Source of the DNA: a virus
IMG/VR virus record: IMGVR_UViG_3300021197_001787
Coordinates: 64,001-128,000 of that record
Strand: one strand, 5' to 3'
DNA: 64,000 nt
In this document: piece by piece, positions 30,953 to 46,351 of the stretch
How positions within the stretch are numbered: the first letter of the stretch is position 1
Layout: the number at the start of each line of letters is the position of its first letter
Position numbers and translations under genes: made by a program
The notes under the pieces: model-generated
What the model was told of the DNA's origin: nothing
Databases searched by the model: none
The model's input: the letters and a program-made list of their open reading frames with translations, nothing else

Positions 30953-31010
30953 TTATATTATACCAGTTCTCGCGCGTTAAGTCAAGCTGTCACATGTCAA
31001 AAGAATGTCA
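30953..31010 (-). promoter_or_regulatory. Cassette promoter (TGACA-N6-TGACA box + sigma70 elements)
   Basis: TGACA TTCTTT TGACA N9 TTGACT. Confidence 0.75.
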
Positions 31011-31212
31011 AGCGCATAAGTAGTTGGAATCGTTGGTGATACACGGCATTGTAAGTCATTGATATACTGCATCTTTCCTGTCACATGAACTCACACATTG
31101 ACAAACAGTGTGTAAGGGTCTATATATTAAATCTAAACACACAAACAGTCACATTAAAACAGAACAATATAATACACACCGCATTGTCTGACACATAACT
31201 ACGCACATAACA

Positions 31213-31404
31213 CTAACCACCAACAGCCACTATAGGATTATACAGGCCATCTACTACAGGTATAGCAATCGTCTGTATGCATTTAAGAGAGTTATTATAT
31301 AATGTATAGTTATTCTCATCCTTGTCTACTACAACACAATAGCCCTTTGCGCTGTTAGTTATATTATATTTACTTATGAGTTCTCCGGCCTTAAACATCT
31401 TCAC
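31213..31404 (-). CDS. Small SH3-like family protein (divergent)
   Basis: FKAGELIS..YCVVV. Confidence 0.5.
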   Translation of the reverse strand: MKMFKAGELISKYNITNSAKGYCVVVDKDENNYTLYNNSLKCIQTIAIPVVDGLYNPIVAVGG

Positions 31405-31714
31405 AGTCCTTGGCTAATACGTCAGCTTCAACCGCCTGTTTCGTCATCTCAGCAATATCAGCAACTGTTAGTTTAACTTCTTTTCTATGTTTATTCTGTT
31501 CTCTCACGAGTTTATTGTAACGCTTCTTCTCGTATGCATTTACATGTAGGTTCTCAATACCCAACGCTTCCAGCTTTGACTTGAATAGTTTAACATCTTG
31601 TAGTCTCGCTGAGTCTTTGCCTACTCTTGAATCCGCGCGAGTTATGACGACTTCGCGAAAGTTCAAACGGCCTTCAACCATTTTAAGTATTGTTTGAGAG
31701 ATATAGTATTTCAT
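31391..31714 (-). CDS. Hypothetical protein
   Basis: ORF track. Confidence 0.55.
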   Translation of the reverse strand: MKYYISQTILKMVEGRLNFREVVITRADSRVGKDSARLQDVKLFKSKLEALGIENLHVNAYEKKRYNKLVREQNKHRKEVKLTVADIAEMTKQAVEADVLAKDCEDV

Positions 31715-31719
31715 AATAA

Positions 31720-32090
31720 AAGAGGGATCTTTGCGGCGGCCCAGTTCCGTTTATCACTGTTCAGCAATAAAGGAGAAGTAGAGTCTTTGTTTATGGTCGC
31801 GCTCTACTCGACTAGTTTGCTCTGGCTTCTATGTTTATAAGGCTGGCGGCTCTCCTATTATTCCAGCGCGTTATCATGAGGGTGGCTAATCCTCTTATAG
31901 CCGTTACTGTAGGATCTTCATTATCTTTAACCTCAAGGGTTAGGGTTGGACATCTTACTCTGCGACACATACAGGCCCGTCGCAGCACTCGGCACTATGG
32001 AGTTGGGGGTTTTCATTTTCTTTACTTTACCTCTCGCGCTTTGCGCTTTACGGGTTAGGTGTGATTATAGGATAGCTTCGCCGATTGCGA
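31720..32090 (-). ncRNA. Candidate structured non-coding RNA
   Basis: No credible CDS; several short hairpins (see findings). Confidence 0.3.
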
Positions 32091-32154
32091 TACCAAGCCC
32101 AAAGGCAAGGAGCAAGAGCGGACTAAAAAAGAGGATTCCAAGAAAGTCGTTCAT

Positions 32155-32556
32155 TTAGATGCCCTCACCAGCAGCTAGCGCAGCAAGATCGGCCTTCTCT
32201 TCATCGCTAAGGTGTTCCTTGGCTTTGTTGCGGAGGCTGGCTGCGCTCATCTTGGTGGGGTTCTTATGCTCACCGTTGCAGCCATCAGCAAAAGACTGCG
32301 CGCCTTCTGGTGTGTTGTAGTCAATGACGGCTTGCTTGCCCTGCGTTGTGGAGTTGCGGAATACGCGCCACATCTGAGGACCAACTTGCTCAACAGTCCA
32401 GCCGGTGAGTTGGCGACGAGTTGGCGGTGCGGGCAGTGGCTTGTATGCTTTCTTACGGCTTGACGTGACTTCGATGTTGTTAATCATCGGGTCAGGGCGA
32501 TACCGAAAGTTGTCGTTAGAGTCAGTGAGTTGGTCGAGGCTGAATGATGTTGGCAT
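32155..32556 (-). CDS. Hypothetical protein
   Basis: Cassette promoter plus AGGAG RBS. Confidence 0.7.
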   Translation of the reverse strand: MPTSFSLDQLTDSNDNFRYRPDPMINNIEVTSSRKKAYKPLPAPPTRRQLTGWTVEQVGPQMWRVFRNSTTQGKQAVIDYNTPEGAQSFADGCNGEHKNPTKMSAASLRNKAKEHLSDEEKADLAALAAGEGI

Positions 32557-32584
32557 TGATATATCTCCTTACTTGATATACTAT

Positions 32585-32638
32585 ATTATACACTAAAAAT
32601 GGGGGAAAGTCAACAACTAAGTTGTCAAGAGAATGTCA
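32585..32638 (-). promoter_or_regulatory. Cassette promoter
   Basis: TGACA TTCTCT TGACA N9 TTGACT N17 TATAAT. Confidence 0.85.
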
Positions 32639-32767
32639 GGTAGTTTGTGACAAGAGGATAAGAGAGAAAAGCATCAGAGCATTGACCCTGATCATTGTCT
32701 GGCAAAACTCGCGCGATACCAAGTGAAGGGCGATAGGGTGAAGGTTGGATTGTCCGCGAAGTTTCAT
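32636..32767 (-). CDS. 43-aa peptide with hydrophobic C-terminus
   Basis: MKLRGQSNLHP..; own promoter and RBS. Confidence 0.5.
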   Translation of the reverse strand: MKLRGQSNLHPIALHLVSREFCQTMIRVNALMLFSLILLSQTT

Positions 32768-32794
32768 AATGTTCTTTCCTTGTTTGGTATAACC

Positions 32795-32849
32795 ATTATA
32801 CCATTAAAAGCAGGTGATTGTCAACAACTAAGTTGTCAAGAGAATGTCA
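32795..32849 (-). promoter_or_regulatory. Cassette promoter
   Basis: TGACA TTCTCT TGACA N9 TTGACA N18 TATAAT. Confidence 0.85.
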
Positions 32850-44578: not shown

Positions 44579-44877
44579 TATTCAAACTCTCCTATTTTGA
44601 CATATTTCAAATCGTTCCTAAGAAAATATGCATCTTCTTTGGCCTTGTTAAAACTTCTACCCCAGCGGCCGTGTGGGCCGTCGTTCTGCATCCATTTTAC
44701 ATAGTATCTCTTCTTTTCATTCTGGGATGTCCAAGAATACACCTTTGGTATTGTTTCTATCTGCACAACCAAACCAACGAGCGGGCGCTTCTCAATCCAG
44801 ATCCGTTTTGACCACCTACGCAAGTCATTTGTTTGTAAAGCATAAGACGATAACGTCACTAAATCACCTACTTTCAT
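44578..44877 (-). CDS. Small SH3-like family protein
   Basis: MKVGDLVTL..VGLVV..VKW. Confidence 0.7.
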   Translation of the reverse strand: MKVGDLVTLSSYALQTNDLRRWSKRIWIEKRPLVGLVVQIETIPKVYSWTSQNEKKRYYVKWMQNDGPHGRWGRSFNKAKEDAYFLRNDLKYVKIGEFE

Positions 44878-45067
44878 TCAACACCTCCTTATCTAAATAC
44901 ACAACTTCATAGTTTGTTTCGTCTATCACACATCTCATATCATCAACCCATACAACCCACAATCCATCATTGGGAGCCTCATACTCTTCTAGTACAATGC
45001 TAGGGTTGGACCAATCTTCTAAACCAAACCCTATCGGCTTGAAAGATATTAGATCACCAACTTTCAC
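44864..45067 (-). CDS. Small SH3-like family protein
   Basis: MKVGDLISF..LNESR*. Confidence 0.7.
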   Translation of the reverse strand: MKVGDLISFKPIGFGLEDWSNPSIVLEEYEAPNDGLWVVWVDDMRCVIDETNYEVVYLDKEVLNESR

Positions 45068-45305
45068 TAATCACCTCAAGGGCATTTTCTGCGAAGCCTG
45101 TAGATAAGTGACCATTATCCCACAAAACGTCAACACTCCTGCCGACTCTTGTAGCCCAGCCTTGGTTTTTCACTCTGACTTCTTCTGGCATCCAGCCATC
45201 ATGCAATGCCACTATAATGCCGGTGCGCTTGCCTGTATCTGGCGTCTTTTTGCCCTTGAATACAACAAGGTTACCATTTTGCTTAACAAGATCGCCTAGC
45301 TTCAC
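45054..45305 (-). CDS. Small SH3-like family protein
   Basis: MKLGDLVKQ..GIIV..VLW..EVISESW*. Confidence 0.7.
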   Translation of the reverse strand: MKLGDLVKQNGNLVVFKGKKTPDTGKRTGIIVALHDGWMPEEVRVKNQGWATRVGRSVDVLWDNGHLSTGFAENALEVISESW

Positions 45306-45474
45306 TTATAACCTCCAACATTTTAATAAATTCAAAAGTAATCTCCCCGTCAAACCATTGAATCTTGGCAACAGATTTGCCGTGATCAATGGAAGTCTCT
45401 TTAGGCCCAATCATGATTACGATACCTCGATGATCGTGGTCGTGCCGGCTATGTACCAAACTTCCGACTCTCAT
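45283..45474 (-). CDS. Small SH3-like family protein
   Basis: MRVGSLVH..GIVI..IQWFDG. Confidence 0.7.
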   Translation of the reverse strand: MRVGSLVHSRHDHDHRGIVIMIGPKETSIDHGKSVAKIQWFDGEITFEFIKMLEVISEARRSC

Positions 45475-45809
45475 GCTTGCACCATCTGTGGGGTTGCATC
45501 AATGTAGTATGATCGATCTGACATGCGTTCCCAGCATGTCTCAGTCCAGTCACCAAAAATCTTCCAAAGATCCTTACTCTTCATTTCCTTCATCTTATCG
45601 TGGTCCCACTCAAACGCTTCCGTTTGCTCGCCATCGGTGTCGCGATAGGCATAGCACTCATTCATCACTTGCAGGGCAGACTCTTCATCACTGACGCTCA
45701 AGAAGTCCAGTATATCAGCTATAGCCGCCAACGCACAACCCTTCTCCGTCAAGTGGATCGAGGTAAACATTTCGCTCTCGTATGTTCCGTGTAAAACCCA
45801 AAGTTTCAT
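45471..45809 (-). CDS. Hypothetical protein
   Basis: Promoter and RBS. Confidence 0.65.
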   Translation of the reverse strand: MKLWVLHGTYESEMFTSIHLTEKGCALAAIADILDFLSVSDEESALQVMNECYAYRDTDGEQTEAFEWDHDKMKEMKSKDLWKIFGDWTETCWERMSDRSYYIDATPQMVQA

Positions 45810-45828
45810 TTTTTCTCCTTATACATAT

Positions 45829-45872
45829 AAGATAACACCAATACCCTCAACCGTCAAGTTAAGAGAATGTCA
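45829..45872 (-). promoter_or_regulatory. Cassette promoter (variant)
   Basis: TGACA N10 TTGACG N17 TATCTT. Confidence 0.65.
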
Positions 45873-46079
45873 GCAAACGAGTTGGATGTGTTCTTTTCTT
45901 ACAGTCTCAGGGTTTCGGCGTTTACCATTTCCAAACCAAAAGATAATCCTCCAGCCCGCGTCTTCGGAGTCTTCCGGGGGCAATAGGCCGGTCATCCCGG
46001 GATGGGCTTCGTATGCGATAATAATCCCCATTGATTGTCCGGGCCGCGCGGTGCATTGTACCAAATCACCTACTTTCAT
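45870..46079 (-). CDS. Small SH3-like family protein
   Basis: MKVGDLVQC..GIII..IFW. Confidence 0.7.
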   Translation of the reverse strand: MKVGDLVQCTARPGQSMGIIIAYEAHPGMTGLLPPEDSEDAGWRIIFWFGNGKRRNPETVRKEHIQLVC

Positions 46080-46082
46080 TAT

Positions 46083-46286
46083 CTACCTGCCCGCATTTCG
46101 TGCGTCTTGCATGCTGCCCACGTACTGATATGCACCCTTGTTATACAATGGGGCTGTACACTTCTTTCTATGCTCGGAGGTTTCTTGTGCGTACTGCTCA
46201 CCACACTCCAAACAATGCTCATACCCCAAAGCTCTACGCTTGGGGTTGAACTCTTCGCCGCAGTCAAAACATTGTGGCCAATCCAT
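46083..46286 (-). CDS. TraR/DksA-type C4 zinc-finger protein
   Basis: CFDCGEEFNPKRRALGYEHCLEC. Confidence 0.7.
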   Translation of the reverse strand: MDWPQCFDCGEEFNPKRRALGYEHCLECGEQYAQETSEHRKKCTAPLYNKGAYQYVGSMQDARNAGR

Positions 46287-46308
46287 CTCTTCTCTCCTTA
46301 CCCTTATA

Positions 46309-46351
46309 AGATAACGCCGCTGTCGCTAAACGTCAAGTCAAAAAGATGTCA
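46309..46351 (-). promoter_or_regulatory. Cassette promoter (variant)
   Basis: TGACA N6 TGACT abutting TTGACG N17 TATCTT. Confidence 0.65.

Follow-up and report, generated by a model that had tools for sequence, protein, structure and literature searches.

What reads the paired TGACA boxes that stand, at fixed spacing, in front of one promoter after another within a single block of a marine virus genome? The block lies in IMG/VR record IMGVR_UViG_3300021197_001787, of which we analyzed bases 64,001-128,000 (64,000 nucleotides, hereafter the window, to which all coordinates refer unless stated). Seventeen sigma70-type promoters on the minus strand of the window are preceded by boxes of the form TGACA-N6-TGACA, and an earlier note had proposed that one host or phage regulator controls the whole block through them. 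We consider it about an even chance (roughly 0.5) that the boxes are a clade-specific upstream promoter element, the predicted site of one tandem-binding activator protein, which would make the block a separately controlled regulon.

On the plus strand of the window the pair appears as TGTCA-N6-TGTCA, in 15 exact copies, with none on the opposite strand; dinucleotide-preserving shuffles contained 0.19 copies on average and 2 at most. The entire 194,231-bp genome holds the same 15 pairs and no more, all on one strand and within 13 kb (30.5-43.5 kb of the window), confirming that the box is confined to the block. Control spacings of N4, N5, N7 and N8 gave 0 to 4 matches each across the genome. 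Thirteen of the 17 promoters carry an exact pair, two a pair with a degenerate distal box and two a single box. All the promoter sites listed earlier were recovered, with some corrections: 13 of the 14 sites called canonical are exact, the one at 44225 having a mismatch in its distal box (TGACG); among the variants, 36773 has an exact proximal and a degenerate distal box, and 45868 and 46347 have one exact box 10 nt from the -35 and no distal box; and the exact pairs at 30544 and 30567 had been omitted.

The geometry of the boxes is rigid. Each repeat unit is an 11-mer, C-T-TGACA-T/A-T with two free positions (C-TTGACA-T/A plus three looser bases), and the pair occupies about -45 to -62 (-61 to -56 and -50 to -45, with the -10 set at -12 to -7). 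As had been reported, the boxes lie upstream of an intact -35: a separate hexamer follows the proximal box after 9 nt. The spacings are as fixed as was claimed, while the variation ascribed to the N6 is limited to its middle two positions. After each of the 17 sites comes a -35 of TTGACx or TTGCxx, a spacer of 16-18 nt and a -10 of TATAAT, TATATT or TATCTT, often with TG before it, then a short leader with AAGGAG and an ATG. This layout of box, promoter and ATG describes most sites; the exceptions are 40460, which drives a tRNA-Leu, and 40155, which has a long leader.

The boxes are exclusive to one kind of region. The block (30.9-46.4 kb) contains about 45 small genes, mostly orphan open reading frames (ORFans), with 17 promoters across 15.5 kb, and its G+C is 0.45-0.51 versus 0.34-0.42 in the flanks, with the same contrast between 32000-46000 and the rest of the window. 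Among 20 block genes searched against Pfam or PHROGs, only the MoxR-type AAA+ and DUF2201/VWA genes scored above the family cut-off. In work on T4 such a block is known as a hyperplastic region, or ORFanage. All 17 promoter units identified in it have at least one box, and they serve ORFans, one tRNA and the MoxR/VWA pair. Sigma70-type promoters outside the block (of tRNAs, GroEL and others), several of them a perfect TTGACA-N17-TATAAT, have zero boxes, and neither does phoH have one. One promoter class marks the whole block of small early-type genes, as had been suggested, and since the rest of the genome has no such boxes, it is reasonable to suppose that one regulator serves the block.

The minus strand of the genome bears 232 of its 248 open reading frames. 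Since it encodes a gp23-type capsid protein, and since its nearest cultured relatives (Flavobacterium phage immuto, Microcystis phage Mel-JY01 and Rhodothermus phage RM378) are only ~45% identical, the source is classified, by these sequence comparisons, as an uncultured marine "far-T4" phage.

We examined whether the boxes are kept in relatives. A scan of IMG/VR with the cassette pattern returned at least 115 loci, the source of the cassettes for the logo and the census described below. In a major-capsid search, at least 597 contigs proved to encode a relative. Twelve of 13 complete IMG/VR relatives (172-204 kb) hold 4-15 exact pairs, nearly all in one orientation and in a single block of 10-20 kb, whereas the reversed pattern, used as a control, gave 0-1 pairs in the 13 genomes. 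Orthologous small proteins are 31-60% identical between the source genome and these relatives, and the cassette common to the relatives reads CTTGACAtt-N-CTTGACAA-N9-TTGAC-N17-TATAtT-SD, where SD is the Shine-Dalgarno sequence. The contig L225 (NZIV01000080.1), a 12.9-kb member of the phage clade binned in the metagenome-assembled genome (MAG) Candidatus Neomarinimicrobiota MED589, has four box pairs, in three promoter cassettes and the end-of-block element. Box pairs are absent from the three cultured relatives checked, Pelagibacter phage HTVC008M, Flavobacterium phage immuto and Microcystis phage Mel-JY01, and blastn of a cassette against cultured phages found nothing below E 0.8. The architecture is not described in the literature searched.

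The logo of 293 distinct cassettes among the loci listed is ctCTTGACATTc.CTTGACAActta..ccTTGACtt(N)tg.TATAtTata.gtataaaaaggag. TGACA, TTG and TATA are fixed by the search pattern, and only the other positions count as evidence. The informative ones among these are C-2, T-1, T+5, T+6, C+9, T+10 and A+16: a strongly conserved C and T precede each box, TT follows box 1 and A follows box 2. Strong conservation is lacking in the center of the N6, over most of the N9, in the -35/-10 spacer and in the upstream flank. The pattern speaks for selection on the boxes and not on the entire cassette.

So that the boxes would not bias the sample, a census was anchored on the core promoter alone (n=336 promoters in the listed loci). 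Both boxes were exact in 231 promoters and one box had one mismatch in 61; the rest comprised 4 with one mismatch per box, 4 intermediate and 36 boxless, a bimodal distribution. Within the boxes conservation was 1.00 for T, 0.90 for G, 1.00 for A, 1.00 for C and 0.96-1.00 for the last A, as against 0.77 for A, 0.76 for C and a mixed last base in the true -35 of the same promoters. The box profile is thus unlike that of the neighboring -35, which points to a reader other than sigma region 4. The dominant TTGAC-to-TTGAC distances are 11, 15 and 26 bp; the gap from box to -35 is N9 in 273 of 288 cassettes and N8 in 14, and no compensation of this distance by the -35/-10 spacer was seen in the 288. 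Upstream genes mostly end at the cassette: in 151 of 266 cassettes their stop codon is the TGA of box 1, the distal box (in the window, for example, at 34332-34334, 38572-38574 and 42356-42358). Operons are not separated by terminators, genes running straight into the next promoter; hence the boxes are transcribed.

The one box-poor member of the clade shows what may stand in the place of the boxes. G010, a complete genome (the IMG/VR record behind locus L063), has one exact box pair only. Its hyperplastic region lies at about 165-184 kb and 1-8 kb of that genome, and the homologous promoters there have the same TATATTAT -10 style, with A-tracts at -40 to -60 instead of boxes, a feature seen only in G010 among the genomes inspected. 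The MoxR, VWA and CCHC genes are absent from G010. Because its A-tracts lie at the same place, the boxes most likely replace an UP element. The UP element of T4 early and bacterial rRNA promoters is read by the alpha C-terminal domain; like the boxes, it lies at about -40 to -60, upstream of a full -35/-10 promoter. It is an A-tract, whereas the boxes are an invariant direct repeat that contains G and C, in the style of a site read in the major groove.

Boxes also occur without promoters. At the downstream end of the block four tandem boxes precede a palindrome, GGGGGTACCCCCC (GGGGG-N-CCCCC), that occurs once in the genome (Table 1). The palindrome, the C-run and CCGGAATGTATGTCTC are kept together in 15 distinct relatives, 11 of which have 3-6 boxes within 140 nt, some inverted and some on both sides. 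Arrays that lack a promoter and lie in either orientation are easier to explain by a DNA-binding protein in its own right than by a component of RNA polymerase. An Rfam search of the end element found no match, and its RNA fold is not significant (z-score -0.58). The element could be an origin or another nucleoprotein assembly site.

Table 1. Boxed cassettes, end-of-block element and two protein genes, in window coordinates.
Feature	Position	Strand	Description
Four tandem TGACA boxes	30544..30582	-	periods 11, 12, 11; no -35/-10; downstream end of block
GGGGGTACCCCCC palindrome, then TACCCCCCC, then CCGGAATGTATGTCTC	30496..30537	-	directly after the four boxes
Cassette 1	30929..31010	-	CTTGACA / TTTGACA boxes; TTGACT, N17, TG-TATAAT, SD; ATG 30931
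Cassette 2	32554..32638	-	exact box pair; TTGACT-N17-TATAAT; ATG 32556, 133-aa ORFan; orthologous cassette in L225
Cassette 3	32765..32849	-	exact box pair; TTGACA-N18-TATAAT (12 of 12); ATG 32767
Cassette 4	33034..33117	-	exact box pair; TTGACT-N17-TATAAT; ATG 33036
Cassette 5	33337..33421	-	exact box pair; weak -35 TTGCTT, N16, TATATT; ATG 33339
Cassette 6	34254..34334	-	exact box pair; TTGCGT, N16, TATATT; ATG 34256; box-1 TGA is the stop of the upstream gene
Cassette 7	35136..35216	-	exact box pair; TTGACG-N17-TG-TATATT; ATG 35138
Cassette 8, variant	36710..36788	-	distal box degenerate, proximal exact; TTGACG-N17-TATATT; ATG 36712
Cassette 9	38498..38574	-	CTTGACA x2; TTGCAA, N16, TATATT; ATG 38500, DUF2201/VWA metallopeptidase-like, 415 aa
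Cassette 10	40065..40170	-	exact box pair; TTGACG-N16-TATATT, long leader; ATG 40067, MoxR-type AAA+, 359 aa
Cassette 11	40414..40475	-	CTTGACA x2; TTGACG-N17-TATATT; tRNA-Leu(UAA) 40328-40413 begins ~9 nt past -10
Cassette 12	41358..41437	-	CTTGACA x2; TTGCTA, TATATT; ATG 41360, double CCHC zinc-knuckle protein
Cassette 13	42281..42358	-	exact box pair; poor -35, TG-TATATT; ATG 42283
Cassette 14	43449..43527	-	exact box pair; TTGCAT, TG-TATATT; ATG 43451
Cassette 15, variant	44161..44240	-	proximal exact, distal TGACG (one mismatch); TTGACA-N17-TATATT; ATG 44163
Cassette 16, variant	45807..45872	-	single exact box, 10 nt to TTGACG; no distal box; TATCTT; ATG 45809
Cassette 17, variant	46284..46351	-	single exact box, 10 nt to TTGACG; no distal box; TATCTT; ATG 46286
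Stand-alone sigma70 region-4 protein, 82 aa	63795..64043 (past window edge at 64000)	-	also L127:1483-1731
295-aa double zinc-knuckle protein	40473..41360	-	two retroviral-type CX2CX4HX4C knuckles

Among known systems, the nearest to the boxed block are T4-type hyperplastic regions with PeSL (promoter-early stem-loop) cassettes (PMC2839356), which are a closer match than the host-takeover region of SPO1 invoked earlier. PeSL cassettes are early promoters in repeated copies that lie beside ORFans and mediate their shuffling; each combines an A/T-rich upstream part with a stem-loop, and recombination between them is marked by cassette-bounded indels and mini-circles (PMC2839356; Arbiol et al. 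2010). Likewise, the boxed cassettes are repeated strong sigma70-type promoters before small ORFans in a plastic block of a T4-type genome, with a conserved unit of about 80-100 bp, and insertions and deletions relative to L225 are bounded by them. They differ in having two TTGACA boxes at fixed phase where PeSL cassettes have the A/T-rich region. Nor is a stem-loop enriched in or before them: the folding energy of the cassette spacer was -3.04 kcal/mol versus -2.76 for shuffles, and the 60 nt upstream of box 1 had a mean z-score of -0.29. A single G/C palindrome is present, at the block end only. By this comparison the cassettes appear to be a PeSL-like variant of T4-type early-promoter cassettes.

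Under our preferred reading, two 11-nt direct-repeat units centered near -58 and -47 would form an upstream element that precedes, by exactly 15 bp, the -35 hexamer in promoters of the host-sigma70 type, and this element would mark all promoters of the ORFan block, and none other, in a large group of uncultured marine far-T4 phages. One sequence-specific protein would bind the head-to-tail pair on one helix face and help RNA polymerase onto the boxed promoters, in the role that the A/T-rich UP element plays in T4 early promoters and in PeSL cassettes; the promoter-less arrays flanking the GC palindrome would be further sites for this protein. The presence, exclusivity, rigid spacing and conservation of the boxes are observed, while protein binding, activation and the identity of the reader are the parts that we infer. 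A phage core protein seems to us a somewhat likelier reader than a host response regulator; because G010 keeps one cassette, the reader may be such a core protein.

In T4, the middle promoters offer the nearest precedent for a phage activator. There the Mot box, at -30, replaces the -35 and works through sigma appropriation by MotA and AsiA, and it also serves replication origins. The two systems are alike in having a phage-specific promoter class defined by an extra box, with a phage activator predicted here; they differ in that the Mot box is single and takes the place of the -35, whereas here two boxes lie upstream of an intact one. T4-type phages outside the enterobacterial group are not known to have MotA and AsiA.

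Several observations weigh against an activator site. The core promoters typically match 10 of 12 consensus positions, often with an extended -10 TG, and activation is not obviously needed because they are already fairly good. The boxes are perfect -35 hexamers, which would be a coincidence under this model. No OmpR/PhoB winged helix was found among the phage proteins, and searches for the T4 factors gave no match to AsiA and one to MotCF at only 12.7 bits, below cut-off. Seven proteins are present in all five boxed genomes fetched and absent from G010, and none is a classical double-stranded DNA binder: they are two trypsin-like proteases, DUF2201/VWA, MoxR, a weak nucleotidyltransferase-like match, an RNR-like protein (so labeled by eye) and the double CCHC protein. 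G010 is not a clean negative, since it keeps one exact cassette, and for that reason the contrast between it and the five genomes is weak. Finally, the logo loci were picked by a pattern that contains the boxes, which makes part of the conservation evidence circular; only the flanking positions, the census anchored on the core and the counts over whole genomes escape the problem.

A wider proposal is that this abundant clade swapped its UP element for a two-box activator site, served either by a novel phage protein or by a host response regulator that has been hijacked, and that the same protein acts on the palindrome arrays, which would be a possible transcription-primed replication origin in the manner of MotA origins. 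We consider it less likely than not. If true, it would be a new mode of early transcription in T4-type phages without MotA and AsiA.

The strongest rival explanation is that a host response regulator of the OmpR/PhoB family binds the boxes as a head-to-tail dimer and ties the ORFan block to a host signal such as phosphate, as the earlier note had suspected. The PHO box, which is bound head-to-tail, consists of two 11-nt direct-repeat units, each made up of 7 conserved bases and 4 that are less so, and its heptamer in E. coli is CTGTCAT (PMC4415409). The phage boxes share this architecture (two 11-nt direct-repeat units, 7 conserved bases in each and a TGNCA core), and the 11-bp head-to-tail geometry remarked on before is indeed that of OmpR/PhoB-family sites, with the period in register. 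On the opposite strand the TGTCA core matches; read with transcription, YTGACAT shares 5-6 of its 7 positions with CTGTCAT, and the variant CTGACA is frequent. A conserved host factor would also explain more easily why the box is invariant across phages whose proteins are 31-60% identical, and no obvious phage factor that binds double-stranded DNA co-varies with the boxes. The TT-n-ACA profile may resemble the half-sites of several OmpR-family regulators.

The match to the Pho box, however, extends only to the 5-mer core and the period and fails in either the flanks or the central base. Read inverted, the flanks are aTGTCAag versus cTGTCAt; read with transcription, the box is YTTGACA/CTGACAT, and its central base, T in E. 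coli PhoB sites, is A in 100% of cases. The PHO box replaces the -35, about 10 bp upstream of the -10, and is bound by PhoB~P at phosphate-acquisition genes, whereas the phage boxes leave the -35 intact and serve ORFans, a tRNA and the MoxR/VWA pair. With phoH boxless as well and no phage winged helix of the OmpR type, the proposal that PhoB or phosphate sensing is involved was not borne out. The arrays beside the phage's one GC palindrome, with boxes facing both ways, likewise look phage-specific.

Searches on the host side found no counterpart of the boxes. L225 is the sole hint of a host, a weak one that may equally be a binning artefact, and the Marinimicrobia MAG that holds it contains no more box pairs of its own than chance would give, and no box regulon that we could find. 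In 200 genomes of the Marinimicrobia phylum all box matches fell inside conserved coding sequence for an aminotransferase, HPRT or SecY; a 19-base cassette pattern, scanned against bacterial genomes, had 9 matches, about chance level by estimate, one of them being L225; and no close bacterial relative of the phage GroEL was found by the method used. Taken with the central base and the intact -35, these results lead us to regard a host regulator of this family as doubtful.

An unlikely explanation is that the boxes are extra -35 hexamers read by sigma region 4, either of host sigma70, in which case they would serve as an RNA-polymerase antenna, or of the 82-aa phage protein, which could then assist sigma or compete with it at the boxed promoters. 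Flanks included, the box (cTTGACAt) is identical to the extended -35 consensus, and additional sigma70 -35 elements would share the TTGACA sequence. The phage protein, a Cys-rich N-terminus followed by sigma70 region 4.2, matches Pfam Sigma70_r4 at 41 bits, above cut-off, and has more than 200 homologues in IMG/VR, several of them on box-bearing contigs. Yet the two kinds of element differ in profile (TTG would be better kept than ACA in additional -35 elements, whereas in the boxes ACA is invariant and G variable), and no -10 lies 17 bp downstream of either box, or at 16-18 bp generally. The recognition helix of the phage protein, SFARVKQ, also differs from what we take to be its sigma70 counterpart, TRERIRQ, which counts against this explanation.

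The distribution of the region-4 gene led us to reject its product as the reader, and with it one of the two helix-turn-helix (HTH) proteins, that at 63795, which the earlier note had named for binding tests: it does not co-occur with the boxes. The gene sits between a ribbon-helix-helix (RHH)-like gene and an acidic 222-aa gene and is polymorphic for presence in the clade. It is missing from 5 of 12 complete block-carrying relatives; these five have 4-9 box pairs, and in them the two neighbor genes abut in a clean synteny gap, and it is present in the nearly box-less G010. No region 4 of the ECF (extracytoplasmic function) type was found in the phage.

It is quite improbable that the boxes have no dedicated reader, the cassettes being paralogous copies spread by duplication or recombination and the boxes baggage or short homology. 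The block is a hyperplastic ORFan region whose gene gains and losses relative to a close relative are bounded by cassettes; near-identical cassettes exist within the window, and PeSL cassettes mediate such shuffling (PMC2839356). What is conserved, though, is short boxes at fixed spacing while the adjacent spacer bases vary, and because nothing but these fixed-spacing boxes is kept, the signature is that of a binding site and not of recombination homology. The pattern also persists across very divergent genomes, box arrays exist without promoters, and the stem-loop that defines PeSL is not enriched.

Least probable is an RNA-level motif, UGACA-N6-UGACA at gene junctions, which an RNA-binding protein, for example the conserved double-CCHC protein of the block, would bind or cut: the boxes are transcribed and the weak structural neighbors of that protein include RNA-helicase arch domains, but the fixed 15-bp distance to the -35 is a constraint at the DNA level, the fold matches are all non-significant, and the end-element boxes lie in both orientations.

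Whatever reads them, the boxes are a sharply defined and highly conserved cis element that separates the ORFan-block promoters from plain sigma70 promoters, and a simple marker of the hyperplastic early block in metagenomic contigs of this abundant clade. A 22-bp two-box oligonucleotide is a concrete bait for the regulator, and perhaps for identifying the host. Were the boxes read by a host response regulator, the expression of dozens of phage accessory genes would depend on a host signal.

Three further phage proteins were considered as readers. The CCHC protein is kept inside the boxed block in 11 of 13 complete relatives. Its AlphaFold model (predicted local distance difference test score, pLDDT, 90) shows long helices and a small beta-barrel; compared with the PDB it had no significant neighbor, the weak ones being the arch domains mentioned above and WYL-type barrels. 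The protein is a weak candidate for binding nucleic acid and lacks a classical fold for binding double-stranded DNA. The 112-aa protein at 12739-13077 is conserved in six of six genomes compared, has by eye a C-terminal HTH of the Fis/NtrC type, and its gene adjoins a divergent promoter pair at about 12914 and 12945. An RHH-like fold was assigned by eye to the protein at 64040-64387, for which Pfam gave no such match. Both are core proteins and, by their predicted folds, may be regulators.

Of the proteins shared by the five boxed genomes and missing from G010, the two trypsin-like peptidases (27494-28222 and 52671-53441) are paralogous and have signal-peptide-like N-termini.

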